A program made the translations under genes and the position numbers. The notes below the pieces were generated by a model. That model was given only the letters and a program-made list of their open reading frames with translations. It did no database searches and had not been told where the DNA came from. Below, one piece after another: positions 12,836 through 49,178 of a DNA stretch of 64,000 bases. How positions within the stretch are numbered: position 1 is the stretch's first letter; every line of letters begins with the position of its first letter. Origin of the DNA: an uncultured Verrucomicrobiae bacterium (GTDB taxonomy: Bacteria > Verrucomicrobiota > Verrucomicrobiia > Chthoniobacterales > Chthoniobacteraceae); contig CAVYKI010000012.1 in the NCBI GenBank assembly GCA_963769025.1, forward strand, positions 384,001 through 448,000, in the 5' to 3' direction.

Positions 12836-12909
12836 AAAGAATTTTGGAAATCTTTTGAACGTCGGGCGCGGGCCGTGGTCATACCTACCGTTACAGTGTT
12901 AGGGTGGTT

Positions 12910-12962
12910 CGGGCCGCTCGACGGAACTCCGGTGGGAGTCCGCGGGCGGCCCGGCATTTTTT
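12910..12962 (+). terminator. Long GC hairpin followed by T6 (terminator or leader structure)
   Basis: cgggccgctcg (12910-12920) pairs with cgggcggcccg (12943-12953), inner stem actcc/ggagt, then tttttt at 12957-12962. Confidence 0.5.
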
Positions 12963-13060
12963 AGGGGGAAACGGGCGTGGCGCCCGGCGGTCCATTTCCA
13001 TCGCTTTCAATTTTGAACTTTGAGCTTTTGCCCTCCCGCCGCTAGCGTCCACGCCCCCTG

Positions 13061-17169: not shown

Positions 17170-20100
17170 TCAGTTCTTCGAAAGCGTGGGTGCCGCTGCG
17201 CTGGCCGCTTTCTTGGCCGCGTCGTATTGCGCGCGGAGCCGCTCCGCCTCGGCTTTCGCCGCCTGCAGTTCCTTCGCACTGCCGATCGCAGCCTTCTCCG
17301 CCGCGGCCTTCGTCTTCGCGGCATCCTTCTCCAGTTGCGCGATGCGGCCCTTGAGTTCGACGGCCTGCTTCTTCGCGTCCTCGACTTCCTTTTTCGCGGC
17401 GGCGACAGCCTTTTCGGCGGCCGGGAGTTTTCGGGAGGCAAGCTTGGCGTCCACGTCGGCCTTCTTGACCGCTTCGGTCAGTTCCTCCGGCACGGTGTTT
17501 TCAGCAGGCTTCGCAATTTGCTTCGCCTTCGCGGCGCTGAGCGCGTTCTGCGCCTTTTCGATCTCGGCTTTGATGGCCTGGTAGGGCGCATCCGCCTTCG
17601 CAAACTCCGGAGTCCCTTTCACGACCTTATCGCGCTCAAGTTTCAACTTCACCCGCTGCGCCTCGACCGCCTCTACTTTCTTCGCCGCCGCCGCGACTTC
17701 CGCAGCGACCGCATTCATCGCCTCGGCAGTCTTCGCGTCAGGCGGACCCGCCTTGCGATCCGCGACCGCCTTCTCCGCTGCGGCCAGCGCCGCCGCGGCG
17801 GCATCGGCCTCCTGCTTCAGCTTTTGAAATTGCGCCTCTTTTTCCGCAATCACCTTCGGGCCGTCGGCAACGGTCTTCTGCGCGTTCACGATTCCCTGCT
17901 TCGCAAGCTCGACCTGCCGGAATGCGTCCTTCGCCGTGGCGAGAAGGTCGTCGTGCTGCGCCTGCTTGGAAGCGACCGTCTGGCGCGCATTGAATACCGT
18001 CTGGTAAAACTGCGCACGTTTCCACCGGGCGACGCCGCCCTGTGAAGCCGTGAGCCTTCCGTTCGCCGCCTCGAGCGCGGTCTTCGCTGCTGCGACGGCC
18101 TTCTCGGCCTCGGTCGGTTGCGGAGCGGTCAACGCCGCCTTTGCCGCGTTCAGATCCGTCTCGATTTTCGTCGCTTCATCCTTCTTCGCCTGCACAGCCG
18201 TGCTCGCCCTTGCGAATTCCGGCGTGCCGTCCTTGAGCTTCGCGCGCGCCGCGCGGAGCGGCTCGACCTGTGCGTTCGCTGCATCGAACGCCTTCTGCAA
18301 CGTCGCGACCTTCGCCACCGCCTCGGGCGACGGCGTATACTTTCCGGGCTGAAGTTTCGCGATGTCGGCGTCGATCGCCTCCACGGCCTTCTGCGCATCC
18401 GCGATCGCCTTCGGTGCGGCGTTCCTCGAGGTGCTCACGGCGGCGATCGCCTTCTGATGCTGCTGGCGCAAGTCCTCGATCGCCTTCTGCGCGGTGGCGA
18501 CCGCGGCCTTTGCCGCCTCCACCTTTTCGCGGGCCGGCGGGACCGGGGCGGCTTCCACGGCGCGCTTTGCGTCGGCGAGTGCCTTCTCGGCATTTGCGAC
18601 CTGCGGTTCGAATTCCTTCACTGCCTGCTCGGCCTTCGCAAATTCCGGCGTGCCGGCTGCGGCTTTCGTGCGCGCCTCGGTGCGCTTTGCGAGTTCGGCC
18701 TTTGCACGGTCATGCGCCTCTTGCGAAGTCTTCGCCGCGGCCTCTGCATTGGCGCGCTGCCGGGATGCCGCTGCGGTCTCGAGATCCGTCGCCGTCTTGC
18801 GCGTGGCCGCGAGCGCATCCTGCGCCTTCGCAATCTGCGCCTTCAGCGCCTCGGCGGCCTTCTCGGCATTTGCCGGCGCCGCCTTGGCGGCTTCGACGGC
18901 CTGCGCTGCCGCGATCTTGCGCTGCTCCGCGGCGGCAAGGTCCGCCTTTCGCTTCGCCTCGGCAGCCTCGCGTTCGGCCTTCACCCGCGCCTCAGCGTCG
19001 GCCACGGCCTTTTGCAGGCCGGGCAGCGCTGCCTGCGTCTCGGCGAGCGTCTTCTCCGCCTCCGCGAGCTGCTCGGCGATGCCCTGGGGATTCGCACTCA
19101 GGCTGCCGATCTTCTTCCCGTCGATCGCATACACGCGAACGTCGCCCGTCCAATCCGCCGCGATGACGCGGTCGCTGTTCAAGGCGCAGCGCAACGCGAG
19201 ATCCCCGAGCGCCTCGGTGGCGATGATCTGTTTTCCAGCCGCGTCCCAGACCTTCGCGATCTTGTCGCGTCCGCAGCTCACGATGCGGCCGTCGGGCGTG
19301 AAATCCACCCACAGCACGCCGCCGGCGTGCGCGGCCCAGTTCCGGATTTCCGTGCCTTCCTTCACATTCCAAAGCGCGATCTTTCCATCCTCACTCGCAC
19401 TCGCGAGCACGCCGGGCATGAATGCCAGGGCGGTGCAGGCGACCTTGTGGCCGGCCAGCGTGTTGAACGGCTTCGGGTCCGCGCCTGCCTCCCACACTTC
19501 CACGCCGCCATTTCGATCCGCCGTCGCGAGGAATTTCCCATCCGGGCTGTATGCGACAGCCGTGACCCACTCGGTGTGCTTTTTGATCAGCCCCGTCTGC
19601 CGGCCGTCCTTCGTGTTGTAAATTTTCACCTGCTTGTTCGGCCCGCCGAGCGCCACGAACTGCTGGTCCGGGCTGATGTCCGCCGCGAGCACCGCGTCCG
19701 CCTCGTTGCCGACCACGCCGATGCGCTCGCCGGTCGTGACGTCCCACATCACCACCTGGCCGGTCTTCCCGCCGAGCCCGCCGCCGGCGATCAGGAGCTT
19801 CGCGTTGCGCGAAAAGCGCAGCACATTCGGAAAGCCCTCGGGGTAAGAGAGGATGCCGAGCCGCTCGAGCGTCTCCGTGTTGTAAAGGAGCACCTGCTTT
19901 TGTCCGCCGATGGCGACCAGCGGCGCCCAGGGGCTCGCGGCCATCGCGATGATGGCGTTGCTCGTGCGCGAACGCACAAACGGCTCCTGCGGCAAATCGC
20001 CCGGCATCGGTGCGGGACCCTCGGGCTTCGTGAGCGAGACGACGGCGGCCTCCACCTTGTTCGCCGTCACCTGCGCGGGCTTGCTGTTCGCATTCTCCAG

Positions 20101-20460
20101 CGCGAAACCGGCGATCCAGCCCTTCAGCAGCGCCATGTCGGCCTCGGAAAGCGAGTCGCCTTTGGGCGGCATCTTCGGGTCGCCGTCCGGCTTGCAGACC
20201 TTGTAGATCAGACTGCCGTCGGCATTGCCCGGCTTGACGACCGGACCATTTTCGCTGCCCGCCATCGTCGCCTGGTACGTCGTCACGTCGAGACCCGCCT
20301 TCTTCTTGTCGGGGTTATGGCAGGTCGTGCACGCGTTGCGGAAAATCGGGAGGATGTGATCCGTGTAGTTCACCTTCGCCGGAGCCTGCGCGAATGCGGC
20401 AAAGCTCAGGCCGAGGAATGCGGCGACGGTCGTGGCGGATTGGGAGAGATTCGGGGTCAT
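17170..20460 (-). CDS. Exported protein: planctomycete-type cytochrome c domain + WD40 propeller + long Ala/Lys-rich coiled coil
   Basis: Signal peptide, ILPIFRNACTTCHN (CxxCH), MPPKG...WI; WD40 blades (HTEWVTAVAYSPDGKFLATADRNGGVEVW); more than 600 aa of heptad-rich helix. Confidence 0.85.
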   Translation of the reverse strand: MTPNLSQSATTVAAFLGLSFAAFAQAPAKVNYTDHILPIFRNACTTCHNPDKKKAGLDVTTYQATMAGSENGPVVKPGNADGSLIYKVCKPDGDPKMPPKGDSLSEADMALLKGWIAGFALENANSKPAQVTANKVEAAVVSLTKPEGPAPMPGDLPQEPFVRSRTSNAIIAMAASPWAPLVAIGGQKQVLLYNTETLERLGILSYPEGFPNVLRFSRNAKLLIAGGGLGGKTGQVVMWDVTTGERIGVVGNEADAVLAADISPDQQFVALGGPNKQVKIYNTKDGRQTGLIKKHTEWVTAVAYSPDGKFLATADRNGGVEVWEAGADPKPFNTLAGHKVACTALAFMPGVLASASEDGKIALWNVKEGTEIRNWAAHAGGVLWVDFTPDGRIVSCGRDKIAKVWDAAGKQIIATEALGDLALRCALNSDRVIAADWTGDVRVYAIDGKKIGSLSANPQGIAEQLAEAEKTLAETQAALPGLQKAVADAEARVKAEREAAEAKRKADLAAAEQRKIAAAQAVEAAKAAPANAEKAAEALKAQIAKAQDALAATRKTATDLETAAASRQRANAEAAAKTSQEAHDRAKAELAKRTEARTKAAAGTPEFAKAEQAVKEFEPQVANAEKALADAKRAVEAAPVPPAREKVEAAKAAVATAQKAIEDLRQQHQKAIAAVSTSRNAAPKAIADAQKAVEAIDADIAKLQPGKYTPSPEAVAKVATLQKAFDAANAQVEPLRAARAKLKDGTPEFARASTAVQAKKDEATKIETDLNAAKAALTAPQPTEAEKAVAAAKTALEAANGRLTASQGGVARWKRAQFYQTVFNARQTVASKQAQHDDLLATAKDAFRQVELAKQGIVNAQKTVADGPKVIAEKEAQFQKLKQEADAAAAALAAAEKAVADRKAGPPDAKTAEAMNAVAAEVAAAAKKVEAVEAQRVKLKLERDKVVKGTPEFAKADAPYQAIKAEIEKAQNALSAAKAKQIAKPAENTVPEELTEAVKKADVDAKLASRKLPAAEKAVAAAKKEVEDAKKQAVELKGRIAQLEKDAAKTKAAAEKAAIGSAKELQAAKAEAERLRAQYDAAKKAASAAAPTLSKN

Positions 20461-20663
20461 GGTTCGCGGAGAAGGAAAGCGGTGAAGGTGGAGGAAATTA
20501 GACAACGAATTAACACCTACGCTCGCTGATTATCGTTTCGAACATTCTCCTCCCAATCTCAATGGAAATCTGGCGCTCGCACTTCAGTTTGGATTGGCGA
20601 CAACGGTTGGACTAACCCCGCCGGCATCCCTTTCGCGGGGAGCCCAGCATGGCCCCGTTATTT

Positions 20664-21578
20664 TTAGAGTGGCGGCGGGCTGCTGCCGCTCGATCCCCAG
20701 ATGAGTTTCCTTCCGGCCCTCACCACTTCAATTCCAAACTCGAATTGCGATTCGATGGCCAATTCCTTTGCGGCACGGAAAACCTCGTAGCTGTCGGGAT
20801 ACACGTAGAAGGCCAAATACATGTTTTCCGCCTTCATCGCGCGCAAAAGGTCGCGCCAACCGCCCCCATTGGCAGGCAGTTGGAGGCCTCGCTCCGGCAA
20901 CGGCGTGCTTTCCTCCGCATCGGCGCCTGCGCTCCGCCACTGGATGTTCACGCGATCGAGACTACGGGAGGAGGTATAAATTGGGTAGATGCGACCATTT
21001 TGGCAGATGACAGGCAGTGATGAGCGGGTCCGTGCGCGCTCCTTGGGAAAACGGAGCTTCACGGTCTGCGCCTCGCGTTGCTGTTTCACTTGTGCGTTCA
21101 ATGCGGCCTCGCGTCCACGCAGTCGCGCGGTTTCGGCCTCGGTGGCGGCGATGAGGTTGTGCAGTTCCGCTTCGCACCGCGCGAGCGAACGAAGTTCCTC
21201 CGCGAGCGCAGCCCACGCGGCACCACCCCCTGCCGCGATGGCATCCGCGCGCTGCGCCGCATCAGTGGTCGCGGCCACGGCATCGGCCCGTGCAGCGGCG
21301 AGGGCTTCCGCTGCGAGGGCGACCTCGTCAAGCGGCGCAGCGTTGTCCGAAGCCGGCCAGGCCCCGGCTTGTTTGCGGAGGGCCTCGAGTTCGGCTTCGG
21401 CGAGTGCGATGCGCTGGGAATAGAGCGCATGGGAGGCGGGTGCCTCCGGCGACGCGCCGCCGGTGCGGGACAACAGCGCGACAAGCAGGGCGATCAGGAT
21501 GATTCCGCCGAAAGTGTTGCACATCGTGTCGAGCAGGAGCTCGAGACTATCCGCGGGGACGAGTGCGCGCCTTTTCAT
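20664..21578 (-). CDS. ExbD/MotB-like single-TM subunit B (coiled coil + C-terminal alpha/beta domain)
   Basis: MKRR...SLELLLDTMCNTFGGIILIALLVALL: Asp-containing N-terminal TM as in ExbD/TolR/MotB; coiled coil; C-terminal YLAFYVYPDSYEVFRAAKELA. Confidence 0.6.
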   Translation of the reverse strand: MKRRALVPADSLELLLDTMCNTFGGIILIALLVALLSRTGGASPEAPASHALYSQRIALAEAELEALRKQAGAWPASDNAAPLDEVALAAEALAAARADAVAATTDAAQRADAIAAGGGAAWAALAEELRSLARCEAELHNLIAATEAETARLRGREAALNAQVKQQREAQTVKLRFPKERARTRSSLPVICQNGRIYPIYTSSRSLDRVNIQWRSAGADAEESTPLPERGLQLPANGGGWRDLLRAMKAENMYLAFYVYPDSYEVFRAAKELAIESQFEFGIEVVRAGRKLIWGSSGSSPPPL

Positions 21579-22420
21579 TTTGTGTGAAGTTCGATTTCCG
21601 TCTCCTCGGGGACCAAATCGTAGCCCACCCCGAAGCCTGCACTACGCGCCGCATCCACGTAAGCCTCGAACTCATCCGTCGCGGATGGCTTGCCATAAAA
21701 TACGACGTACTGCTTCTGCGCGCTCAGCCCGCCGAGGGCGGTGCGAAACTCGGCAAGGGTGCTTCCACCTGATTTGTCCTGCGTGTCGAACCGCTGGAGT
21801 GTCCAGCGCCGCGCAGCCAATTGCGCGATGACCGGTTCGCGGTTGGTGGCTGATGGCTCCGGGATGAGACGCAGCACATTCTGCCGCTGCTGTTCTGTGA
21901 GGACGGCGGCCTGCGCCTGTTCCGCTGCGCGTGCGGCGGCTTGCGCTGCCGCGGCGCGCTCTGCGGCAGCGGCTTCCAATTTTTTGATTTCAGCACGGCA
22001 CGGCTCCATGCCTGCGCTGAGCCGGGCAAAAACCTCCGCACGCTGTCCCGCACCAGCGTCGGGACGGATGTCGGCCGTCTCAGCACGGATGCGGGCATTA
22101 CGTCCAGCGAGCGCATTGGCATCGGCGCGCAACCCCGCCGCGCGCGAGGCGAGTTCGGCAGGGGTTGCCTGCCCGCCGCGCACAGCGGCGGCACGCTCAG
22201 CCATGCGACGGGCGGTGGAGAGTTCATCGAGCAAGGCCGCCAGGCGGGCTTCTTGGGCGACGGTTGCGCGCTCTTGCTCAAGCATCGGATTCGCGGAGCC
22301 AAGATTGAGGGACAGCAATAGCGTGACGATGATCAGGATGCCGCTCACAGCCGTAATGATGTCCTGAAAAGCAAAGAAGCTGATCGGCGATCCCGTCTGA
22401 CGCAGTTTCCGGCGGAGCAT
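21575..22420 (-). CDS. ExbD/MotB-like single-TM subunit A (coiled coil + C-terminal alpha/beta domain)
   Basis: MLRRK...ISFFAFQDIITAVSGILIIVTLLLSL: Asp-containing TM; coiled coil; C-terminal YVVFYGKPSATDEF...AGFGVGYDLV; lies directly after the MotA/TolQ/ExbB gene. Confidence 0.6.
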   Translation of the reverse strand: MLRRKLRQTGSPISFFAFQDIITAVSGILIIVTLLLSLNLGSANPMLEQERATVAQEARLAALLDELSTARRMAERAAAVRGGQATPAELASRAAGLRADANALAGRNARIRAETADIRPDAGAGQRAEVFARLSAGMEPCRAEIKKLEAAAAERAAAAQAAARAAEQAQAAVLTEQQRQNVLRLIPEPSATNREPVIAQLAARRWTLQRFDTQDKSGGSTLAEFRTALGGLSAQKQYVVFYGKPSATDEFEAYVDAARSAGFGVGYDLVPEETEIELHTK

Positions 22421-22423
22421 GAC

Positions 22424-23311
22424 TCAGGAGGGATCGCGCAGCCTCAACTTTGAGGCAACGTGCGCGTGGCAGTAGTCGTTGCACCCATCCAGAAACTCGC
22501 TTTCGCGCGCTTGCAGCATCGTCGAACGCAGTTGGATAATCAGTGCGGCGACAAGCGCGATGAGGGTTGTCTCAAACGCCGTGGCCAGACCGGCGGTCAC
22601 GTTGCCGAGCGATTCCTTCACCAGTGAAAAGTCGTTCCCGGCCTGAAGTGTGCCGCTGAACGCCGCGATCGCCTGGCTCAAGCCGAGGACCGTTCCAATG
22701 AAACCGAGCACCGGAATCGCCCAAGTCAGCCCCTGAACGAGTGTGTAGCTCGACGCGACCTGCTCCTCATCGTGCTCGGATTGCGTTTTCAATATCTGCG
22801 CAACGTCGCCGACCTGGCCGATGTTGTGGAGGTTCGAGAGCGCGCGTTCGATCCGGTTCAGCAGGATAAAATGGGACGTGCTGTCCACGAGCGTGTGGAT
22901 GCGGTCGAGCACGATGCGCGCAGTGGTGGGAGTGAGGACAAATTCGGGCTGCTGGGGCAGCGCAGCGACATCGAGCGCCGACATTTGGAGACCCAGCTTG
23001 CGCTTTTTCAAAAACAGGATCGAAAGCGCCCAAAAGAAAAAGAGCATGGTCGGATAAGGGCAGATCCCCCGCTCCAGAAACATGGCGGTAAGCCAGCGCG
23101 CCTGCGGCCATTGCCGGGCGACGAGCACGATCATGCCGTAAAATGCGACCGTCAGCAGCGCGCCGATGAGGAACGCGAGCGTCTTGTTGGCCGTGGTGAA
23201 GCGACCTCCGCGAAAGCCGAGGCGCTGCTCGAAATCGCGGCGCGTCCAGTGCAGTTGAAATCGCTCGGGAGCGAGAGGATTTGCTTCAGCGGTTGAAGGG
23301 TCGGTAGTCAT
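22424..23311 (-). CDS. MotA/TolQ/ExbB proton channel family protein
   Basis: WAIPVLGFIGTVLGLSQAI and GLATAFETTLIALVAAL signature helices; two additional N-terminal TMs. Confidence 0.9.
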   Translation of the reverse strand: MTTDPSTAEANPLAPERFQLHWTRRDFEQRLGFRGGRFTTANKTLAFLIGALLTVAFYGMIVLVARQWPQARWLTAMFLERGICPYPTMLFFFWALSILFLKKRKLGLQMSALDVAALPQQPEFVLTPTTARIVLDRIHTLVDSTSHFILLNRIERALSNLHNIGQVGDVAQILKTQSEHDEEQVASSYTLVQGLTWAIPVLGFIGTVLGLSQAIAAFSGTLQAGNDFSLVKESLGNVTAGLATAFETTLIALVAALIIQLRSTMLQARESEFLDGCNDYCHAHVASKLRLRDPS

Positions 23312-23957
23312 CGAGGGTGGCGTAGATTATGCAAAAGGTCGTCACCGCGAGGATCGCGTACGCGATGAGAATCCCGGCAAGCGCAAGGCCTCGCCCCCCG
23401 ATGGCGTCATCCCTTTTCATCGCACTCAGCGCGATGTGGCCATAGAGCAGGGCGAGAGCCGTGGAGAGGCTGATCCCCCAGCCGCACAGGCTCAGCCAGC
23501 GCGGCATCCGCTCCGAGATGAGCACGACGGAGGCGCAAAAAAGGACGGCGCTCAAAATGCCGAACACCAGCGCGGCGACGGCAAGTCCGCTCATCTGCGG
23601 AAGCTCCCCGTGATGAAAAGGCGGCGGGACGGCGCTGGGTGCAACGCCATAAGCCGGTGGCGCAGGCATCGGTTCAGCCCGGCGCTCCGCGAGCTGAAGC
23701 CTGTCCTCCAGCGCGGCATTGCGGTTCCGCTGGGCGCTGAGTTCTCGCTCCAGCTGCGCCTGTTCGTTTGCGCGAGCGCCGCGCTGGTTCGATTCGAGTT
23801 GATCGATCCATTCTCCGACCGGACGCCAGCCGTCCCCGGCCTGGACGCGGTGGAGACGGCTGATCTCGCCCGCGGCGAGACGCGCCCGGATATCCGTCAG
23901 GGTAAAGCTCCCCAGCACACGCCCTTTCCATTCGATTTCAAACGTCTGAAGGTTCAT
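23286..23957 (-). CDS. GYF_2-like + coiled coil + Pro-rich + DUF4190-like membrane protein
   Basis: WKGRVLGSFTLTDIRARLAAGEIS...GWRPVGEW (GYF_2-like); SGLAVAALVFGILS...YGHIALSAMKR...GGRGLALAGILIAY (DUF4190-like). Start overlaps the upstream stop (ATGA). Confidence 0.75.
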   Translation of the reverse strand: MNLQTFEIEWKGRVLGSFTLTDIRARLAAGEISRLHRVQAGDGWRPVGEWIDQLESNQRGARANEQAQLERELSAQRNRNAALEDRLQLAERRAEPMPAPPAYGVAPSAVPPPFHHGELPQMSGLAVAALVFGILSAVLFCASVVLISERMPRWLSLCGWGISLSTALALLYGHIALSAMKRDDAIGGRGLALAGILIAYAILAVTTFCIIYATLDDYRPFNR

Positions 23958-26932
23958 CGCTTTGGTGCCACGAGCGGGATTTTTTCCATCATTTCCGCGG
24001 GCAATTCTCCGAGGTAAAACCCGCGCGCAATGGCGAGAAGGTCGGCGGTTTTCACAGGGACGAAAACCACGGGTGCGAGCGGATGCGCCGGTTTCGCATC
24101 GAGGGCGACGAGCTGCGCATTTGCGTCGAGCGTCCACAGCGCAAACCCCGCGCGCGCCTCGCCGCGCAGGACGGGCTTTCCGGTCGCATCGATGTAGCCG
24201 CCGAGCGTAAGCCCGGCCTTCATCACCCCGGAGATGATGGAATGCGCGGCGCGCGCCTCGGCGTAATATTTTCGGGTCGCGCAGCGCTCCATGAGAGGTT
24301 TGAGCGCCGCATCGCGGGCGGACAGAATCCAGTCCGAACTGCGAGGCGCGGAGTCTGCGACGAGGGAGCGGAGTTCCGCGATATCGGTGCGGAGACTGCG
24401 ACAATAGTGAAGCCCCCACGCGTTGGGACGAAAATCGGCGACATACGCGAGCTTCGCCAGGAGGTAGGCGCGGAAGGACGGCGGCGTCTTCGTGAGCGAT
24501 GCGACGCGCTCGAATTGCCGGAGCAGCGGCAATTCGTACTTCGCGCCGTCGGCATCCGTCATCCGATCGAGATCCAGTGATCGAAACGCCGCCGTCGCGG
24601 GGCTTTCGCGGATATCCGTCAGTTCGTCGCCCGCACGGCCTGCCGGCAAAATGCGGAGCGTGAAAGTCGTGTTGTGGAAATTCACCCCCGGCAGCTTGTC
24701 CTTCGGATCGAAAAACTTTCCGCTCCACGAACGGTTCTGAACGCCGGCATCGCCCGTCCCGGAAGGCTCGCCGATTTTCCCCTGGGTGAAAACTTTCCGC
24801 CGCCCGCCGGCGGCGCTCACGACCGTCGCTTCGTGGACCGAATTCAGCAACGGATCGTCCCGGAGCGCAAAAAAACCGTTCAGCTCCGCCTCCAGAACAT
24901 TCTTCGGCTTCCACGGGTCCGCCCCATCCTTTTTCACCGCCTGCCAGGCCACCGCGTCATCCGGGATCAAGAGCGCGGCCAGCAGCGCATCCGTCGTTGG
25001 GAATTCCGCCGCGAGCTTGCCCGCAGCCTGGACCTCGGGTGAGGCGGAAAGCTGCGAGGCCTTGAAGGCATCGAGCGCCGCACGATACGCCGCAAGATCC
25101 GCGGCCTTCAGCAGCCCTTCGCGATACTGCGCCAGGGTGTCGAGTTCGCCGCGGATGAGATTTGCCCGCTGGCGGACTGCGGTGAAGCGCGCCGCGAGCG
25201 CAGCAGGAAGAGCCAGGGCTTTGAGCGGAGGATTCACCCGGGCCTCGAAGGCGCGCAGTGCCGGTTCCATCTCTGCCATCGTTGCCGTCAGCGCGTCCGC
25301 CGGGGCATCCAGCCGCAGCTTTTCCTGCACCTCGGATTCAAAATGCGCCAGCTCGGCATCCGCCGTGCGCGCCAGGCTCTCGCGCTCCACTGCCACCCAC
25401 GCCTCGAACAACGTGCGCGCGGCATCCAGCCGTGTCTGCAACCCCAGGCGCAAACTCTTCGGAAGCGACCCGATCTGGCCTGCGGTGATGTCGAGTTGCG
25501 ACGACACAGCGGATGGATCCACGGATACAAATTTGGCCGCGCTCTGCTTTTCGATTCCGGCGAGCAGGCCGTCCGCATCGGCCGCCATGCGGCGAGAGTC
25601 GCGGGTCCAGGCTGTTGTTTTTTCGATCTGCGCGTGGAGCTGCGGCCGCGCCGCCAGCCCGGGCCGGTCTGCGCGCAGCGATGCGGCCAGCCGCTCCGCC
25701 GGCTCGATTTCACCAGCGGCCTGGAGATGCGCGAGCTGCTGTTGAAAATCGCCGGCGCTCTGCGCACGCCACCACCACCACCCGGCTCCGCTCACCACGA
25801 TCAGCCCCACGGCCGCAAGCAGGGTTATTTTCACAACGCGCGCACGCTGGAGGCGCTGCCGTTCCGCGCGCACCGCCGCAGCGGAGGTGCGCGCCGCGTT
25901 CAGGATTTCGTCCCTCACGGGACGCCCAAACGCTTCGACTTCCTTCCATGCCCGTTCGAGCCCCAGAAGCATCTCCGCGGAGTCTGCCGCGGTGAGCGGC
26001 TGCCGCGCGCGGAGCCGCGCCCCGGCTTCCGCAGAGAGACCACTCAGGCGGGATGCGGCACTTGCAAAACGCGCTTCCTCCTCGGCCGCAGCCCTCTCGC
26101 GGTCCACCCAGCTTTTCGTGCTCTGAAAAACATCGCCACTTTCGCCGCTGAGCACAAACCCATGCTCCTCCGCGAGTGCCGCCATCCGCCCGAGGATCGC
26201 AGCCGCCCCGCGCCAGTCCCCGGCTTCCCGCAAACCCGCCAATCCCCCCGCCGCCTCGCGAGCCTCCGCAGCGGCAGCCCGCGCAAGCGCCTCGCGGCGG
26301 AGACCGAGGGCACGGTCGTAATCCGCGGTCCCCTCCAGTTCGCGCGCCGCGGGGATGCGCTCCAATGCGTCGAGCGTGGCAAGCGTGCCCGCCTCATCCC
26401 CGGCTTGCAGGCAGCCTTGCAGCCGCGTCTTGAGCCCTTGGAACGCCTTGTTCTCCAGCCGCGCGAGTTCCAGCTTCGCATTCGCATCCGTGGGATTCAG
26501 CCGCGCGATGGTGCGGATGATGCCGAGCGCCCGTGTGTCGTCGCGCGCCGTGACCGCCGCGCGATAGTCGCGATACAGCAGATGATTCGCCGAAACGCCG
26601 CGCCGGTAAAGCGCATCGAGCGCATCCACGGCCCGCGAATCAAACGGCGGCGCAAACGGAAGCCCGAGCTGCGCGCACACATCCGCCCACTTCCGCGCAT
26701 CGGCAAAGCTGAGCGCCGCCAGCAGGTCGAGCAACGGCGGCTCCGCCTCGGCAAGTTGCAGCGTCTGGTACTCGCTCCCCTTCGCCAGCATCGCCGCGCA
26801 AGTATCCAGCCGCGCCACCGCATCCGCGCACGCCCCGCTATAATCCGCCGCCAGCGTCTCCACCGCGACCCCCGGCGGATTCCCCGCGAGGTAATCTCGG
26901 ATGTGACGGATGAGTTTGTGGACGTTGTTCAT
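23954..26932 (-). CDS. Large (about 990 aa) helical single-TM hypothetical protein
   Basis: Uninterrupted ORF with coupled start/stop at both ends; helical TPR-like N-terminal part, central TM (ITLLAAVGLIVVSGAGWWWW), long helical C-terminal part. Confidence 0.8.
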   Translation of the reverse strand: MNNVHKLIRHIRDYLAGNPPGVAVETLAADYSGACADAVARLDTCAAMLAKGSEYQTLQLAEAEPPLLDLLAALSFADARKWADVCAQLGLPFAPPFDSRAVDALDALYRRGVSANHLLYRDYRAAVTARDDTRALGIIRTIARLNPTDANAKLELARLENKAFQGLKTRLQGCLQAGDEAGTLATLDALERIPAARELEGTADYDRALGLRREALARAAAAEAREAAGGLAGLREAGDWRGAAAILGRMAALAEEHGFVLSGESGDVFQSTKSWVDRERAAAEEEARFASAASRLSGLSAEAGARLRARQPLTAADSAEMLLGLERAWKEVEAFGRPVRDEILNAARTSAAAVRAERQRLQRARVVKITLLAAVGLIVVSGAGWWWWRAQSAGDFQQQLAHLQAAGEIEPAERLAASLRADRPGLAARPQLHAQIEKTTAWTRDSRRMAADADGLLAGIEKQSAAKFVSVDPSAVSSQLDITAGQIGSLPKSLRLGLQTRLDAARTLFEAWVAVERESLARTADAELAHFESEVQEKLRLDAPADALTATMAEMEPALRAFEARVNPPLKALALPAALAARFTAVRQRANLIRGELDTLAQYREGLLKAADLAAYRAALDAFKASQLSASPEVQAAGKLAAEFPTTDALLAALLIPDDAVAWQAVKKDGADPWKPKNVLEAELNGFFALRDDPLLNSVHEATVVSAAGGRRKVFTQGKIGEPSGTGDAGVQNRSWSGKFFDPKDKLPGVNFHNTTFTLRILPAGRAGDELTDIRESPATAAFRSLDLDRMTDADGAKYELPLLRQFERVASLTKTPPSFRAYLLAKLAYVADFRPNAWGLHYCRSLRTDIAELRSLVADSAPRSSDWILSARDAALKPLMERCATRKYYAEARAAHSIISGVMKAGLTLGGYIDATGKPVLRGEARAGFALWTLDANAQLVALDAKPAHPLAPVVFVPVKTADLLAIARGFYLGELPAEMMEKIPLVAPKR

Positions 26933-29917
26933 TGAATCTTGAAAAGAACGAGTGTCAGCCAAGGTGCGTTGCCTGACGGCTGAATCAGGAGGCGATATTC
27001 ACCCGCCGGCAAAACATCCTTCATGTGCAGCGGATGATCCCTGAGTGCGGCTAAAATCTTTTGCGACTCAGCGGCCTTCTTGGCTGCTGTCTTGCCCAGC
27101 TCCGCCTCGTTCTGTAACGCAACGAGAAGATTCTGGAGTTCTTTCAGCCGGTCAATTTTTTGGTCACGGATTCTTTTTAGGCTCTTCTTCTCATCATCAT
27201 TTTTTCCCTCTCCCATGCGCGACTTCCAACGTGCTATTGCTTTATCCACCGCTTCGACGGCACCGGGAATAACACTTGGTAGTGGCTCGTTCGCTTTCAG
27301 ATTCAAGAGACTCGTCCCGACGTTGAACAGCGCCTCGTACTCGCCAGAACTTCCGTAGGATTGCAGATGGCGTCCAAAGGTGTCGGGTTTGATCGGATGC
27401 GAAAGCAGCGGGATCTCCGAAACTTGGGCGTCAGGTTGCTTTTTCTGTCTGGCTTCTTTCTCCGCCGCTTCGCGCCTCTGCTTATTTTCCTGTTCGATGA
27501 CTTTGTTGATCGGCTCCAAAGTCGCAACAAGGTGCTCGGACGGTTTTCCATCAACAATTGCCTGCTGGTCCTGATAGCTTTTCTTCTCGGTAACGATGCG
27601 GTTGTTCAGTGCGGTCACAATCCCTTCAAGCGAGGCCGAACCAGATGCTTCGACCGGGATGCGATGCTTTTCAGTTGGGATCTGCGGCGAGCAGGAACTC
27701 GGTAATTCCAAGACTAGCATTGGCGCTAGAGTTCTCGCCTTTTCGCACAGATCGAGCGCTTCGCTGCTCATGATGCGCAAGCGGTCGTTTTCGCGCTGCA
27801 AGCCGCCTTTTTCCACCACACGCAGCGGCGCAGGATTGTCAGCGAGAGTGACCCAAGCGGTAAGCAAGCACTTACCGCCCATCTGCAGTCGCAATTCGTA
27901 TGGTGGGGCCAGTGATGCCTGGCCTGCGGAGAACTCACCGCTTTTCTCATTCCAAACAAACGCCTTCTTTTGGTCGGTAACCTTGAACAAAAAACCGTCC
28001 CCTTGCCGTTTGAGTACCATTTCCATTGCCTTCGGCACCTGGTGTTTTCAGCCACGGCTCGGCTCCGGACTTTTTCAGTTCAGCGGCGAACACTTTCCAC
28101 TCTTCAGATTTCTCCGGGTTGAGGACGATCATCAAATCTCCCTCGAAGCGCTTCTTCTCTTCGGAGCTTTTCTTCTCTTTGGAGCTGTCCGGTTCCTGTT
28201 TTTTTGGGTCGTCCGCTGCAATTGCTCGCTTTGGTGGAGGCTTGCCAGCGTTTGCAAGCGTCACCAGCCAAGCCGGCCACAGGTGGCGGCGCTCTTTGAG
28301 CAGAGCTTCCATTTTTTCGTTATTTCCGTGCGCCGCAACAACAGCTTCCCAATCCTCAATTAGTTTTTCAACTTTCGGCCCGCCTTCCTCATTTCGGAGG
28401 TCGCTCGGCAATGCTTCGAAGTGCTTGCGGAACCAGCCGGGCGTGCGTTCACCCGGCGGGAGTTCAATCGCCGCGAACAGGCGGTCCGCCCACAGCTTTT
28501 CCACGGCATTACGCGTATCCTCAAAAAGATGCGGGGCTAGCCGCTTCAGGAGCTTGGAGTCCGCTTTTTCGATCTGGTCGCGTAGAGCGTGAAGCGCGTC
28601 GAGTTGCGCCGCCTTCACAGGGGACTGTTCTATTTTCAACAACTCCTGCTGGTGGGCGTGGAATTTCCCGTGAAGAGAAAACAACTCGCTCACAGTTTCA
28701 GGAACCGGAAGACCCGTGCCGCCGGCGTTGAACAGGGTAATCGGTTGCTCGGCCTGCGGCAGCGGTGGCGAAAGCTTAGACTTTTGCGTTTTCAACGCTG
28801 CGGCGGTGTCTTCGGTGGCTCTGGCAAGGGCGATGGACGCATCGAGTTTTGCGGCTGGCACCTCGGCGAGTTCCGCCCCGGTCTCATCGCTGAAAACACT
28901 GCGGAATGTGTCCCGGATTTGTTGGCGCTGGTTTTTGACTCCGTCACTCTCCCGCATGATGAAAAACATCCCGCCCGCCACCACTGCGACGATCGCGGCA
29001 GCAAGGCCGATCCAGATCGCGGTGCGGCTTCCGCGTTCACGGCGCGGGCGGGTGGCGAGGGCCAGTTTTTCGTCGAAGAGATTGCCGATTTTCGCGGGCG
29101 CGGCGCCCATCGGGGAGGACATCGGGAAACTCGCGTCATCGGGCACGCGCGAAGTGGAATGGGCACCGGCGGTCTCGAAGGTCTGCGCAGGCGGAATCGG
29201 GAGTGTATGCGGCGCAGTGAGGTCCAGGATGGCACGCCCATTCTCCGCATTTGCACGCAGGGGTGAATCGGCCGGGAGGGCGAGCCAGCGAAAGTCTGCC
29301 AGTTCATCTCCGGTCTGAAGGAAAGTGGTGAATGTCGCCTGCCACGATTGCGCCAAAGAGCGCCCCAGCGATTCGGCGAAGATCGCGAGCACATCGGCAC
29401 CACGCGGGAGGATGAGGCAGGCGGCGCGCGCGGGCTGGAGCAGTTCGGCGTGACGGGATTCGCCCGTGGCAGCCTGCCATGCGGAAGCACGCCCCGGCTG
29501 GCGACGGAAGCGCCCGAGCGCGACTTCGTCTCCGCCATCCAGCCACCGCGGAGCATCGCTCCACACGGGACGCCATTCCATTTGCGCAAGCACATCGGCT
29601 GGCGACGGCGCAGCGGAGCCGAGTGCGGCGATCTCACGCGGTTCGACGATGAGGTGGTGAGCGATGTGGTTCGTGCGGCCGGTGTAGTCGGCTCCGGCAT
29701 CGCGGATGCACGTGAGGACGTGATAGCGCGAGCCTCCGGCGGTGAGGATGCGATGCGCCAGAACCACGCCGCCAGCAACGCGGTCGAACTGGCTGTCGCG
29801 CTCGATGGCGGTGACGAGCAACGGATGAATGGCACGGTGCCGGGCGACCGTTCCGAAGCCGGAGCGGCCTGCTTCGAGCAGGCGCGGCGCGCTGGTGTAG
29901 ATGAGTTGCCAGGCCAT
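26929..29917 (-). CDS. GAP1-N2-like GTPase-associated protein with TM and a variable C-terminal region; one frameshift near 28040
   Basis: MAWQLIYTSAPRLLEAGRSGFGTVA...DAGADYTGRTNHIAHHLIV matches my recollection of the GAP1-N2 domain; ...SWQATFTT...FRW middle domain; TM (IWIGLAAAIVAVVAGGMFF); Lys/Glu-rich lower-GC tail continuing in ORF 26929-28038. Confidence 0.7.
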
Positions 29918-29925
29918 TTTTTCGG

Positions 29926-31701
29926 TCAGGTCGTCGCGGGAACCATCGCGGGTGCGATGCGGGAGAGCACCCAGAGAGTCGGGATTTCCACCCATCGCGG
30001 AGCGAGCCGGGCGGGATCGGGACCGATATGCTGTTCGCCCTTGGCATCGAGGAAAGTCACGGGCGACGCGCCGAGCGGGCTGGCGGCAAAGAACATCACG
30101 TCGCTGGAAATCGCCTCGGCGTTGGCCACGATTTCGGGCGCCAATTCGAGGAGCAGCGTGCGGATGCGGGCGGAGTTCGCGCGGATGGCGACAATGTCGA
30201 GCCCGCCGGGGCGGACCGGCTCGGCCAACGGCTCGGCCCCGAGCAGGTGGAGCCACGTATCACACTTGCCGATGATGACCGCGAACGGGGTGGCGATGCG
30301 CTGGCCGCTCTGGATGCCGAGGATGCTCTTGAGCCGCGCCTCGGACTCGGCGAGGATGATTTCCTGCTGGTCGGCGCGGCGCTGGAGGAGCTGCGGATCG
30401 TCCGCTTCGCCGATGCGACGGCGAAAGGCGACATTTGTGAGCGGATCGAACAGGAAAAAGAGTCCCGCGGCGGTGGCGATGTGCTGCGCGCCAGGCGAGT
30501 CAGCGCTGTTGCGCGTCGGCTCGAAGTGCTCGCCCGCATTGTCGTAAAATACGAGTGAGAACCCCGGCTCCCCCGTGCGGCTGAGCTGGAAAACGAATGG
30601 CCGGGGGAGCGCCACCTTGCGGCCAAATCGCGGGAGGCGTTCGTACATCGCACCTTCGAGCTGCGTCTTGGCGAGCGCCGCGTCCTGCGGTGTGGCCGCG
30701 GAAAAGAGCTGCGTCTTCATCTCGTTGAGCATCACGTTTTCCGAAGGATCGGCGTCGCGGAAACTGAGGCCGAAGTTCTGGTAAAGCGAGGTGCCGAGCA
30801 TTTTCACGAGCACACTGAGGTAGTAGCTCTTTCCGGCCGACGGCGCGCCGATGATGGAAAAAATGTGATGCGGCAGGTCGAGGAAACCGGGGGGCAATTT
30901 GCGCCGGCAATGCGGACAGGCGAGGTCTCCCGCAGGGATGCCCATGGGATCGAGCGCCTGCCCGCGGTCGTTGAAGCGCGTCGCCTGGAACCTCTGCATC
31001 GCAGCATCCCCCAGCAGCGGATCGCCTCTCAGCGAGTCGTGGACTGCGATGTGCATGACATCGCCGCGATCAAACCTCAGCCAGCAAACCGGGCAGGTAA
31101 ATTCCCCGTACTCCGTGTTGATTTGAGCCGGAGACGCCATCGGTTCGGCGGGTGCCGGAGCGGATTGACCATTCCCCGCCCGAACCGGAGGCGGCAGTAT
31201 GTGCATGATGTCGCGTGCCCGAAACCCCATCGTCTCAAGCCCCGTGGGAAAGACGACTTTGCCCGACGTTCCACCGAGCTGATTCAGGAAATAGGCGAGT
31301 TCCGCAAACCGACACGGGCCATGTTTGGTCTGTGTGTCGGAATCGAAAATGTTCCAGCGCGTGAGATCCAAGCCTGCCAGCCAATCCTTCGGCTTCCTGG
31401 TGGCCCTCAACGCAAGCAGCGAATCGCCGGCGACAATCGTGAAGTCCAATTCTGACTCGATTGGCAGGAATCCCTCGGTGGTGTCCCCGTTCAAACGAAT
31501 CGCGCCGGAAGGGGAAACAGCCATGATCTGGCACCCCTTCTCCCCCCGATGCACCGCGCACCCTTCGCCCTGCGGGGCCGAGGCAAGCGGCCAATCCGCG
31601 CCCTCGCCCGCGGTGATTCGGAAGGGGAAATTCTCGATTTGCTGATGCCGCCCCGTGATGCAATCGAACACCACCACTACCTGTTTGCCGAAGAGATTCA
31701 T
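29926..31701 (-). CDS. TRAFAC-type GTPase with FHA-like and GYF-like N-terminus and split Zn ribbon
   Basis: G1 GAPSAGKS, candidate G2 Thr in AKT, G3 FYDNAGE, FLFDP, G4 IGKCD; CPVC and CPHC pairs; WNIFDSDTQTKHGPCRFAELAYFL (GYF_2-like); beta-rich FHA-like first 100 aa. Confidence 0.8.
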   Translation of the reverse strand: MNLFGKQVVVVFDCITGRHQQIENFPFRITAGEGADWPLASAPQGEGCAVHRGEKGCQIMAVSPSGAIRLNGDTTEGFLPIESELDFTIVAGDSLLALRATRKPKDWLAGLDLTRWNIFDSDTQTKHGPCRFAELAYFLNQLGGTSGKVVFPTGLETMGFRARDIMHILPPPVRAGNGQSAPAPAEPMASPAQINTEYGEFTCPVCWLRFDRGDVMHIAVHDSLRGDPLLGDAAMQRFQATRFNDRGQALDPMGIPAGDLACPHCRRKLPPGFLDLPHHIFSIIGAPSAGKSYYLSVLVKMLGTSLYQNFGLSFRDADPSENVMLNEMKTQLFSAATPQDAALAKTQLEGAMYERLPRFGRKVALPRPFVFQLSRTGEPGFSLVFYDNAGEHFEPTRNSADSPGAQHIATAAGLFFLFDPLTNVAFRRRIGEADDPQLLQRRADQQEIILAESEARLKSILGIQSGQRIATPFAVIIGKCDTWLHLLGAEPLAEPVRPGGLDIVAIRANSARIRTLLLELAPEIVANAEAISSDVMFFAASPLGASPVTFLDAKGEQHIGPDPARLAPRWVEIPTLWVLSRIAPAMVPATT

Positions 31702-31858
31702 CCCGTAGGCTGGTTGTTGACCATCAGGCTTACTTCACGCAACCCAAAACTATGGGCTCATGGAAACAATGCGGCTGCGTAACTGCAGCTCACGCAGCGA
31801 AGCGAGCCGGGTGGAATCCGCATTTGGCAATCGCCCACCGTCCCGGCATCGTGCGTCG

Positions 31859-32806
31859 GTGAACAGCGTACCGCGCACAGCATTTGTCCTCGGCGCCGGT
31901 CTCGGCACGCGGCTCCGTCCGCTGACGAACCGGCGGCCAAAGCCGCTCATCCCGGTCGCCAACCGGCCGCTGATCACGCACGCATTCGACCACCTCATCG
32001 CCGCGGGCATCGGGCGGTTCGTCGTGAACACCCACTGGCGCGCGGAGCGGTATGCGGAATTTTTTCCCGATGGAAAATGGCGCGGCAGGCCGGTCACGTT
32101 CGTCCACGAGTCGCCCGAGGTGCTCGAGACCGCCGGCGGGATCTGGAACGCCCGCACGCAGCTCAGCGAAGGCCCGTTCATCGTGTATAATGGTGACATC
32201 CTCAGCGACCTCCCGCTCGCACCGGCGCTCGATGCACACCGCGCCGCGGGCAACGAAGTCACGCTCATCCTCCGTTCGCACGGCGGCAACACGAACGTCG
32301 CCTTCGACGCCGCGAGCGGCCGCATCCTCGATCTGCGCCGCGCACTGCGTCCGGAAATCGAGCCGCGGCACCTTTTCACCGGCATCTACATCGTCGAGCC
32401 GGGATTCATCGCGCGCATCCCTGCAGAGCAGAAACTGTCGGTCGTCCCCGTCTTTCACGACATGATCCGCGCCGGCGCAAGGCTGGGCGGCATCGTGCTC
32501 GACGAGGGCGCGTGGTGGGACCTCGGCTCGCGCTCCGAATACCTCGCCGTCCATGCCGCGCTCGCAGGAAGGGGCGCGCCGTGGATTTCCCCGACGGCGT
32601 CAGTTTCTCCGGACGCTTCGATCACCGGTGCAACCGCCATTGCCGCGGGCGCGAGCATCGGCGCGGGCGCGGTGCTGCGCGACTGCATCATCTGGGAAAA
32701 TGCCAACATCGCGCCCGGCGCTCACCTCACGCGCTGCATCGTCGCGGATGGCATGCACGCCGATGGCGAGCACACGGATGTCGATTTCGCACCGGGCGAG
32801 CCGTGA
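31859..32806 (+). CDS. Sugar-phosphate nucleotidyltransferase (MurU-like) with hexapeptide tail
   Basis: AFVLGAGLGTRLRPLTNRRPKPLIPV, LETAGGI, VYNGDI, WWDLGS; GTG start. Confidence 0.88.
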   Translation: MNSVPRTAFVLGAGLGTRLRPLTNRRPKPLIPVANRPLITHAFDHLIAAGIGRFVVNTHWRAERYAEFFPDGKWRGRPVTFVHESPEVLETAGGIWNARTQLSEGPFIVYNGDILSDLPLAPALDAHRAAGNEVTLILRSHGGNTNVAFDAASGRILDLRRALRPEIEPRHLFTGIYIVEPGFIARIPAEQKLSVVPVFHDMIRAGARLGGIVLDEGAWWDLGSRSEYLAVHAALAGRGAPWISPTASVSPDASITGATAIAAGASIGAGAVLRDCIIWENANIAPGAHLTRCIVADGMHADGEHTDVDFAPGEP

Positions 32807-43821: not shown

Positions 43822-43938
<117 letters not shown>

Positions 43939-44127
43939 GACCGGATTTTCCGAATTAAATCCGGACCTCTAGCGATTAAAGTCCGAGCTGCCGGACATTT
44001 TCACGTCACTGTATTCCTAAAGAACGGCTGGTTCCCTGACATCTGCATACATGTAGTTTGTGCAACTTCGCACTGAGTTTTTTCAGATCGCAAGATCCTT
44101 CTTCCTCGCGAATGTGAGGAAAGAGAA

Positions 44128-46979
<2,852 letters not shown>

Positions 46980-47230
46980 AATCTGTTCCTCAAACGGGCT
47001 TGCGCCCGTATTGGAAATTTGTGATAACTGAATTCCCTGTGACTGCATTTGACTGCGGCCACGTCAGATATTCAGACTCAGCATTTTGAAGTTGCATTTA
47101 TTACTACCATGTATGCAGATGTCAAAGAACCAGCAAGGCCATCTAGTGCAGCCTGCTGCGGTTTGGTTTCCGGGGTCTCCCCCTTTGTCGCCAATCTCAA
47201 AAAAGTCCATTTTGCTTGCCTTCCCTAGGC

Positions 47231-47307
47231 TGGTGGGCGTGGCAGGATTCGAACCTGCGACCCTGCGCTTATCAAGCGCATGCTCTAACCAACTGAGCTA
47301 CACGCCC
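47231..47307 (-). tRNA. tRNA-Ile(GAT)
   Basis: gggcgtgtagctcagttggttagagca...cttGATaag...ggttcgaatcc...cca. Confidence 0.96.
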
Positions 47308-47354
47308 GGATTGCAGTTCCGGCACTCCCGGATGGGAGGTGGATGCGAGCCCGT

Positions 47355-47614: not shown

Positions 47615-49178
<1,564 letters not shown>

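Follow-up and report, generated by a model that had tools for sequence, protein, structure and literature searches.

The 64,000-nt stretch of DNA analyzed here, referred to as the window (contig CAVYKI010000012.1 of an uncultured Verrucomicrobiae bacterium), harbors a cluster of tightly packed, co-directional open reading frames (ORFs) that fills positions 20664-31701 on the minus strand and joins a GTPase and a GAP1-N2 gene to a channel subunit of the MotA/TolQ/ExbB family with two aspartate-bearing companions. A preceding interpretation, made from the letters alone (the sequence-only reading), had counted seven genes. This number describes the ancestral design, because relatives carry one GAP1 gene spanning the two ORFs G2 and G3; the window itself reads as eight ORFs, with GAP1 split. 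Numbered from the upstream end, the features are as follows.

29926-31701, minus strand: G1, cytoplasmic TRAFAC GTPase of the DO-GTPase2 type, 591 amino acids (aa), recognized by Pfam and motifs
27947-29917, minus strand: G2, N-terminal part of the GAP1-N2 protein, 656 aa, recognized by Pfam GAP1-N2
about 28019-28024, minus strand: one-base frame change splitting GAP1, at a short A run where the frame switches relative to the protein P0121
26929-28038, minus strand: G3, out-of-frame continuation of the GAP1 gene that encodes its C-terminal part, 369 aa, recognized by its relative P0121
23954-26932, minus strand: G4, single-pass membrane protein of no known family, 992 aa, described from an AlphaFold2 model
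23286-23957, minus strand: G5, GYF-type/DUF4190 protein, 223 aa, Pfam matches under the cut-off
22424-23311, minus strand: G6, channel subunit of the MotA/TolQ/ExbB family, 295 aa, recognized by Pfam MotA_ExbB
21575-22420, minus strand: G7, TolR/ExbD-like subunit A, 281 aa, read from helix aspartate, position and fold
20664-21578, minus strand: G8, TolR/ExbD-like subunit B and paralogue of G7, 304 aa, read from hhalign and helix aspartate

The junctions between these ORFs are exactly as first described. ATGA start/stop overlaps are located at 26929-26932, 23954-23957 and 21575-21578, gaps of 8 nt (29918-29925) and 3 nt (22421-22423) separate G1 from G2 and G6 from G7, and G5 overlaps G6 by 26 nt (23286-23311). 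A scan for promoters and terminators returned no more sites than in shuffled sequence. The proposed domain content also held up for the most part in Pfam searches with the window proteins and their orthologues, the exceptions being the ExbD profile and a GYF domain within the GTPase.

The GTPase G1 is composed of a variable N-terminal region, a zinc ribbon and the GTPase domain, and no membrane segment is predicted. Its match to Pfam DO-GTPase2 (E 8.5e-5, 22.8 bits) lies under the cut-off of 27, and the same family was matched in all 28 G1 orthologues at E≤0.01. The alignment of 20 sequences revealed invariant cysteine pairs of the zinc ribbon (C203/C206 and C262/C265), an invariant Walker A motif (G285-S292) and an invariant Walker B motif with Glu391 (Y386-D-N-A-G-E391-H-F393), as well as the guanine-specificity residues G478-K479 (invariant) and D481 (in at least 90%). 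The set of features by which DO-GTPases are described, namely TRAFAC affiliation, the Walker B glutamate and, in many cases, an N-terminal zinc ribbon, is complete in G1 as judged by its sequence. The first ~190 residues are variable; this region is FHA-like in some orthologues, with FHA-type profile matches in 4 of the 84 orthologous proteins scanned, and Limisphaerales-type orthologues are devoid of it. The GYF domain that had been placed inside G1 is doubtful; hhalign against the GYF region of G5 gave a probability of 34% over 17 columns.

The GAP1 gene begins with G2, which encodes a cytoplasmic GAP1-N2 domain (residues 1-123), a weakly GAP1-M-like region, a membrane helix (303-321) and, beyond it, a helical part outside the membrane. 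The assignment to GAP1-N2 made in the sequence-only reading is borne out by a profile match over the Pfam cut-off (E 1e-16, 61.7 bits, cut-off 24) and by corresponding matches in all 30 G2 orthologues. GAP1-M was matched in 1 of the 84 scanned proteins, 30 GAP1 orthologues among them, and in P0121 at E 0.0014, which is under the cut-off; GAP1-C was absent from the families matched in the Pfam scans of the window proteins, the 84 orthologous proteins and P0121. G3, which was not a separate entry in the earlier gene list, is Lys/Glu-rich with a guanine-plus-cytosine (GC) content of 0.53 and overlaps the G2 ORF by 92 nt out of frame. The longer relatives of this ORF, the 986-aa protein P0121 (carrying PF20013) and a 1034-aa protein, both have the GAP1-N2 family. 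G2 is 56% identical to residues 1-643 of P0121 and its frame follows this protein to about residue 623, and 98% of the G3 ORF is 76% identical to residues 625-984. Based on the alignment of both ORFs to P0121, an interpretation of G3 as an eighth component was rejected in favor of a split GAP1. GAP1 is a single ORF of 890 aa in locus L016 and of 960 aa in L006 (relatives of 890-986 aa), and its length varies between 504 and 1147 aa among complete ORFs. Ig-like matches (Ig_3/I-set) were found in 4 of the 84 orthologous proteins.

The channel subunit G6 matches Pfam MotA_ExbB (PF01618) over the cut-off (E 3.3e-10, 40.2 bits, cut-off 22.9) at residues 164-271, and PF01618 is precomputed on all of the 120 best-listed relatives. 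The underlying search scored 8000 candidates, of which 2965 qualify as relatives at E≤0.001; the identity is 58% or higher for each of the best 120. Four membrane helices are predicted for G6, which is MotA-like; ExbB and TolQ have three membrane helices. In an alignment of 18 sequences the residues P200, G203, G206, T207 and G210 of helix 3 and T244, T248 and T249 of helix 4 are invariant, and we take these Thr, Pro and Gly residues of the last two helices to line the pore. Weak matches were obtained with tolQ models of NCBIfam and ZorA models of PADLOC, the latter restricted to the shared channel region (residues 170-275, best E 1e-5); they were the only matches that the eight window proteins gave to PADLOC. 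The cytoplasmic C-terminal tail of G6 (residues 270-295; 22424-22510) is conspicuous for the invariant residues E270, F273, L274, D275, C277, N278 and C281 and for H282, which is present in at least 90% of the sequences. With its Cys-x3-Cys-His pattern, the tail could be a binding site for a metal or for a partner.

G7 and G8 each cross the membrane once, by an N-terminal helix that carries a conserved aspartate close to its cytoplasmic end. In G7 the helix with Asp20 is followed by a coiled coil of ~140 residues and a TolR-like end domain (183-281), and in G8 the helix with Asp17 leads into a coiled coil, behind which come the larger end domain and a conserved proline-rich C-terminus. Among 36 G7 sequences F15 and F16 are invariant and Q19 and D20 are present in at least 90%, and the same proportion of 39 G8 sequences retains D17. 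The alignment of both families with hhalign documents their paralogy over the full length (probability 99.5%, E 2.5e-23). The model of the G7 end domain has a predicted local distance difference test score (pLDDT) of 93.2, and of the PDB matches, at least 500 in number, TolR 5by4 (E 3.5e-3, template modeling score [TM] 0.53) and ExbD 8pek (E 9.2e-3, TM 0.52) come closest in fold. Searches of PDB sequences with the G7 and G8 profiles retrieved coiled-coil proteins only. The profile of the G7 end domain gave 985 matches at E≤1e-3 among 1.84 billion representatives; the best 150 listed are all G7-like in length and match position, with no bridge to ExbD among them. The profile thus lends no support to the earlier designation of the pair as ExbD-like, for which the helix aspartate, the gene position and a weak fold match speak. 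Because of the aspartate, the fold match and the location right after the MotA-family gene, we read G7 and G8 as divergent, stalked TolR/ExbD-type subunits that stand outside the ExbD family in its formal sense.

Two peculiarities of the stalked subunits are worth recording. Most of the 39 G8-type sequences end with a Pro-x-Pro-Leu/Gln motif at the very C-terminus (20664-20700 in the window); GYF domains bind proline-rich peptides, yet the G8 tail is predicted to lie outside the membrane. In the loci L077 (10849-12636) and L080 (10849-12615), the G7-type protein is extended by a trypsin-like peptidase (Trypsin_2, E ~1e-27), and in this clade a protease would, by its sequence, sit on the stalk of the inner motor subunit.

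The remaining two genes encode membrane proteins. G4 comprises a cytoplasmic helical domain (residues 1-365), a membrane helix (366-389), a long helical part (390-690) and a mixed beta/alpha end domain (699-960), the latter two being its outer parts; the mean pLDDT of the AlphaFold2 model is 87.8. Pfam, NCBIfam and PADLOC gave no match, the fold search of the whole model against the PDB returned generic helical-repeat matches alone (TM-scores ≤0.15), the profile search of PDB sequences yielded only helical noise, and all relatives are annotated as "hypothetical protein". G5 starts with a GYF-type domain, continues with a coiled coil and a stretch rich in proline, and also has a membrane region of the DUF4190 type; its Pfam matches to DUF4190 (E 1.4e-6) and GYF_2 (E 0.026) are both under the cut-off. 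DUF4190 was detected in 24 of the 26 G5 orthologues; GYF_2 was found in 7 of the 84 scanned proteins, a count that is not assigned to particular genes. In locus L006, a separate protein of 425 aa, clearly matched by GYF_2 (E 3e-9), is encoded on the opposite strand directly downstream of the cluster (12725-13999, minus strand).

The structural conservation of the cluster was investigated by scanning one genome per species. At least 599 pattern matches were obtained, 522 were confirmed and the best 80 loci by G6 were kept, so that all counts refer to the best 80 of at least 522 relatives, all chosen through G6; gene presence means a tblastn match with the window proteins at E≤1e-5. Many loci are contigs of metagenome-assembled genomes (MAGs) with uncertain labels, and start codons in the loci were set by rule. 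According to the record titles, 71 of the 80 loci belong to Verrucomicrobiota (Verrucomicrobiales, Limisphaerales, Chthoniobacterales and Methylacidiphilales), and the labels of the other nine are those of MAG bins of other phyla. Culturable carriers of the cluster are Brevifollis gellanilyticus (L032) and Prosthecobacter. Across the loci, the identity of G6 ranges from 53 to 71%. G7 and G8 are both present, in the same order after G6, in 60 of the 63 loci with at least 2.8 kb of downstream sequence, and G4 was found in 55 of the 56 loci with at least 4 kb upstream. Upstream sequence of at least 8.5 kb is available for 48 loci, and in 47 of these G1 and G2 adjoin the motor genes, with the same orientation and order in 46. 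The co-occurrence of the GTPase/GAP1 genes with the MotA/ExbD-like trio, on which the sequence-only reading had staked its proposal, is thus the rule in these loci.

Exactly seven abutting genes are present in L006 and L016. G5 was found in 36 of the 80 loci and in almost no Limisphaerales-type locus; in the loci of this type G1 and GAP1 are shorter and G7 is longer. For G3 none of the 80 loci gave a match, owing to the strong divergence of the outer part of GAP1. The G1-G2 block is inverted in L015 and L038, where it diverges from G6-G8 and is adjacent nevertheless. Two copies of the cluster are present in one Verrucomicrobiaceae MAG (contigs L038 and L059), and the second copy type, represented by L038 and L015, forms its own clade in the G6 tree. 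An extra gene of 375-418 aa, lacking a Pfam match, directly follows G8 on the same strand in four loci of one clade (L022, L028, L039 and L073; e.g., 2618-3742 in L028) and may be an added component.

The genes of the cluster largely share a common history. Pairwise identities of the six core genes correlate with Spearman coefficients of 0.66-0.86 across 38 complete clusters, a descriptive measure given that the pairs are non-independent. The GTPase tree has 24 splits with good support; 18 of them are also found in the tree of G6, 20 in that of G8 and 23 in that of G4, with one to four conflicting splits in these comparisons of quick trees. The G6 tree, calculated with FastTree, roughly follows the order labels and places the window with Chthoniobacterales. 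The mean identity over the clusters is 0.58 for G6 and 0.53 for G1, and the best-conserved parts are the zinc ribbon (0.73), helices 3-4 of G6 (0.70), the GTPase domain (0.58) and GAP1-N2 (0.54). The membrane helices of G7 (0.65) and G8 (0.70) are the best-conserved part of each protein, and the parts outside the membrane have a mean identity of 0.18-0.29. The constraint sits on the cytoplasmic and membrane core.

The genomic setting of the cluster is ordinary. The sequence-only reading had seen visibly lower-GC DNA between unrelated host genes, but the GC content of the cluster is 0.631 compared to 0.640 in the rest of the window, and a dip to 0.53-0.59 is limited to 26.5-29 kb, corresponding to the Lys/Glu-rich C-terminal half of GAP1. 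The idea of a foreign island was rejected on this basis, and the implied foreign-DNA character is likewise at odds with the chromosomal location and with gene trees that track taxonomy. The window carries one further feature of relevance here, located 12 kb from the cluster:

43822-49179, minus strand: complete rRNA operon (5S, 23S, 16S) with tRNA-Ile(GAT) and tRNA-Ala(TGC) in the spacer

The presence of this operon documents that the window is chromosomal and explains its second low-GC stretch (0.52-0.57); the G4 protein of the window is recorded on a 601-kb contig. The flanking genes are diverse, of metabolic or housekeeping type, and differ between lineages. Synteny of the flanks is found among close relatives only, as exemplified by an upstream sulfatase in nine Verrucomicrobiaceae loci. 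An association with defense islands finds no support: among the 134 ORFs that flank the cluster in 20 loci, PADLOC models matched five at E≤1e-10, which belong to four loci and represent mostly generic helicase domains. A 1134-aa SNF2 helicase in L045 (16889-20290, minus strand; DpdE E 9e-140, ZorD E 2.4e-121) is located 3.8 kb downstream of the cluster; we take it as a coincidence, because its family is not among the 15 largest groups of flanking ORFs, each with at least three loci.

The ordinary setting and the high conservation of G6 and G1 favor a vertically inherited cellular machine. The cluster represents a chromosomally inherited, seven-gene unit of Verrucomicrobiota that probably extends to Planctomycetota; the nearest Protein Atlas clusters to G4 and G7 stem from both phyla and are leads only. 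We regard it as an evenly balanced proposition that this unit encodes a machine spanning the envelope, with a proton-driven motor that is controlled, or read, by a GTPase switch. The earlier concept of one machine with a GTPase switch and a MotA/ExbB-type motor persists as a conserved genetic unit and finds no support with respect to its implied island character or an association with defense islands; a housekeeping role in the cell envelope, rather than one in defense, appears to fit the data.

As judged by its family, G6 would form the ring of a proton-driven MotA/ExbB-type channel, and G7 and G8 would supply the Asp-bearing helices inside this ring in a putative 5:2 assembly. Since both paralogues are kept almost everywhere, they may act as a heterodimer, and their coiled-coil stalks would keep the TolR-like end domains at a considerable distance from the inner membrane. 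Candidate single-pass scaffolds are the GAP1-N2 protein and G4; in both, a single helix joins a conserved cytoplasmic domain to a large outer part, which would liken them to TolA or TonB with an additional cytoplasmic handle. G5 may serve as a GYF/DUF4190 adaptor in many lineages. We infer that G1 binds the GAP1-N2 domain and acts as a nucleotide-dependent switch, which would license the assembly or activity of the motor or, with control running in the opposite direction, be set by it. Proton flow would thereby be coupled to mechanical work or to signaling across the envelope. In a bolder and distinctly tentative version, which we hold to be somewhat doubtful, the cluster would add a new class to the proton-driven 5:2 motors represented by Mot, Ton, Tol, Agl, Gld and Zor, the first with a P-loop GTPase and its partner fixed in the operon. 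A heteromeric pair of stalked TolR-like subunits and two large single-pass scaffolds would link proton flow to a nucleotide switch across the envelope, and the whole would represent an organelle for envelope mechanics or surface movement, ancestral to Verrucomicrobiota, and probably to Planctomycetota, and passed on vertically.

The cluster shares with Tol-Pal and ExbB-ExbD-TonB a channel of the MotA/ExbB/TolQ family that adjoins single-pass Asp subunits, the end domain of which weakly resembles TolR/ExbD in its predicted fold, and, like TolA, its single-pass partners have long helical parts outside the membrane. In contrast to Tol-Pal and Ton, Pfam and NCBIfam gave no match to TolA, TonB, TolB, Pal or a TonB-dependent receptor in the cluster, no flanking gene is conserved across lineages and a GTPase belongs to the set; unlike ExbD and TolR, G7 and G8 hold an inserted coiled coil of ~140 residues and fail the ExbD profile. 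Zorya likewise combines a MotA-family subunit with a single-pass Asp partner outside motility and transport, but G6 has 295 aa compared to the 420-780 positions of the matched ZorA models, and ZorB, ZorC and ZorD have no match among the eight window proteins.

The gliding motor of Myxococcus consists of the TolQ/MotA-type protein AglR and the two TolR-type subunits AglQ and AglS. In this TolQ/TolR-type machine, MglA-GTP is described to bind the zinc ribbon-linker-GYF region of the single-pass protein GltJ, thereby controlling assembly and turnover of the machine, and the order GYF then zinc ribbon is noted for the Planctomycetes-Verrucomicrobia-Chlamydiae (PVC) clade (PMC11135422). The likeness of the cluster to the Agl-Glt/MglA system, with one TolQ/MotA-type and two different TolR-type subunits, zinc-ribbon and GYF modules, a GTPase that acts, or here would act, as a switch, and long envelope-spanning parts, is architectural only. 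MglA is a small Ras-like protein with the separate GAP MglB, whereas the 591-aa G1 is of the DO-GTPase2 type and carries the zinc ribbon itself, and no homologues of the outer-membrane or periplasmic Glt proteins are evident in the cluster. The logic of the proposed machine would resemble that of MglA/GltJ-AglRQS by analogy, built from GTPase and scaffold families that are presumably unrelated. To our knowledge, gliding has not been reported in these bacteria.

Two further studies describe systems close to the cluster. In PVC bacteria, tolQ-like genes with heterologous pairs of Asp-bearing pore helices have been reported (PMC12204202; Mol Biol Evol 2025). Compared by description, these systems, which are also present in Verrucomicrobia and Planctomycetes, have an atypical tolQ-like gene, two Asp-bearing partners and a large helical/TPR-like gene upstream in common with the cluster; unlike it, they are defined by vWA domains, for which Pfam found no counterpart here, and a GTPase is not mentioned in their description. 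The GAP1-N2/DO-GTPase systems of Kaur, Burroughs, Iyer and Aravind (eLife 2020; PMC7159879) are read there as conflict systems, the binding of the GTPase to GAP1-N2 is predicted from co-evolution, and for planctomycetes versions are mentioned in which the GYF gene is joined to trypsin or to a region rich in membrane segments. According to the account given there, a TRAFAC GTPase with Walker B glutamate and N-terminal zinc ribbon, followed by a GAP1-N2 gene with a C-terminal membrane helix in the encoded protein, in hosts from Verrucomicrobia and Planctomycetes, is common to these systems and the cluster. In contrast, their defining FNIII-repeat protein has no Pfam match among the eight window proteins, the tubulin, HSP70 and kinase themes of the paper are absent here, the accessory set is fixed instead of variable, and GAP1-M is barely and GAP1-C not detectable. 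The text and legends of PMC7159879, to which this search refers, contain no mention of MotA, ExbB, TolQ, proton, stator or TonB; motor genes may be listed in its neighborhood tables (Figure 1-source data 1) or shown in its figure graphics.

The gene set was found without an entry in PADLOC and NCBIfam and in the literature. The sequence-only reading had known of no experimental description of the combination, and this agrees with our survey, in which no paper was found that links the GAP1/DO-GTPase module with a MotA/ExbB-type motor; two later papers citing DO-GTPases mention no GTPase-motor link. We rate the cluster as a motor of the MotA/ExbB type whose accessory set is new and includes a GTPase or, with the same justification, as a GAP1-N2 system in which a motor replaces the variable partners.

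Several observations weigh against an inherited envelope machine. Its prevalence is judged from loci that were all selected through G6. Locus L008 of a Chthoniobacter MAG (1-6033) has G4-G8 without an adjacent GTPase/GAP1 pair, whose upstream place is taken by a proton pyrophosphatase and a GT4 glycosyltransferase. Neither the profile nor the single sequence of G6 matched a PDB chain, the Pfam ExbD profile (PF02472) was found in 0 of 36 G7-type and 0 of 39 G8-type proteins at E≤1, and the fold search with G7 gave only weak matches, none of them at E≤1e-3. The frame change in GAP1 signifies that the copy in the window may not work. Finally, G1 and G2 match the DO-GTPase2 and GAP1-N2 families, which are read as conflict systems in PMC7159879, and the fast-evolving, least conserved outer parts (0.18-0.29), the variable length of GAP1, the trypsin fusions and the two copies in one MAG are also features of defense systems.

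These last points lead to an anti-phage or conflict system of the GAP1-N2 type, an alternative that we consider possible but rather unlikely. The GTPase/GAP1 pair would set a threshold, and the outer part of GAP1 would sense a breach of the envelope together with G4, the channel being sensor or effector. A MotA-type channel as sensor is a proposal made for Zorya. In the effector form, a regulated proton leak would arrest the infected cell. Apart from the families of G1 and G2, this explanation is consistent with the presence of both the GYF-membrane gene G5 and the trypsin fusions to G7 in L077 and L080, with the variable length of GAP1 and its Ig-like domains in four orthologues, with the weak similarity of G6 to ZorA (best E 1e-5) and with the DpdE/ZorD-like SNF2 helicase 3.8 kb downstream in L045. 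However, the window contains no nuclease, protease or other classic effector and no match to ZorB, ZorC or ZorD, and the gene set is nearly fixed across orders without any swapping of effectors. The gene trees are congruent and roughly follow taxonomy, the GC content is normal and the setting chromosomal, the PADLOC matches in the flanks (4 of 20 loci) are mostly generic helicases, none of them conserved, and G6 and G1 are unusually well conserved (0.58 and 0.53).

Two independent systems that travel together, i.e., GTPase/GAP1 (with G4) and an uncoupled Tol-like motor G6-G8, would account for the maintenance of G4-G8 without adjacent G1/G2 in L008 and for the inverted G1-G2 blocks of L015 and L038, which show that a single transcript is not obligatory. 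This scenario is highly improbable in our estimate, because the adjacency is retained in 47 of 48 loci from several orders while other neighbors change, the inverted blocks are still adjacent, the junctions in the window are translationally coupled throughout the cluster, and the histories are congruent with respect to identity correlation and shared splits. Decay of the window copy is a different matter; it would affect no other copy and can be combined with every interpretation of the family. If the frame change were a true mutation, the membrane-anchored protein would lack the C-terminal third of GAP1 and the cluster would be a relic, as suggested by the single GAP1 of relatives (986 and 1034 aa) that covers both window ORFs and by the frame switching over only a few bases, at a short A run. 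On the other hand, assemblies commonly contain one-base errors at homopolymers. The other seven reading frames are intact with their conserved motifs retained, G3 is still 76% identical to its relative without further stops, and its own possible start codons could still allow two polypeptides to be made; we consider decay a minority option.

The preferred reading as an inherited envelope machine is of general relevance, because MotA/ExbB-type motors power few known machines and their cytoplasmic on/off control is understood in few cases. In the cluster, such a motor is genetically tied to a GTPase switch, and this holds for hundreds of species from a phylum that has seen little genetic work and has several unusual envelope traits; it offers a direct way to test the coupling of nucleotide state and proton flow. 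It also bears on the proposal that every GAP1/DO-GTPase system serves in conflict, given that the present branch has the look of conserved cellular machinery, and it provides a working frame for four families of unknown function, namely G4, the G7 type, the G8 type and GYF-DUF4190.

The immediate neighbors of the cluster in the window comprise two further loci. A nucleotidyl transferase gene (31760-32806, plus strand) adjoins the gene for an APH-type kinase (33318-34268, plus strand); the pair diverges from the cluster with 58 nt between the start codons and presumably resembles the MurU/AmgK pair of cell-wall sugar recycling. On the other side, 158 nt downstream of G8 and on the same strand, the gene at 17170-20505 (minus strand) encodes 1111 aa that include WD40 repeats and a cytochrome c domain of the planctomycete type (PSCyt1); this gene is not kept beside the cluster in other loci.

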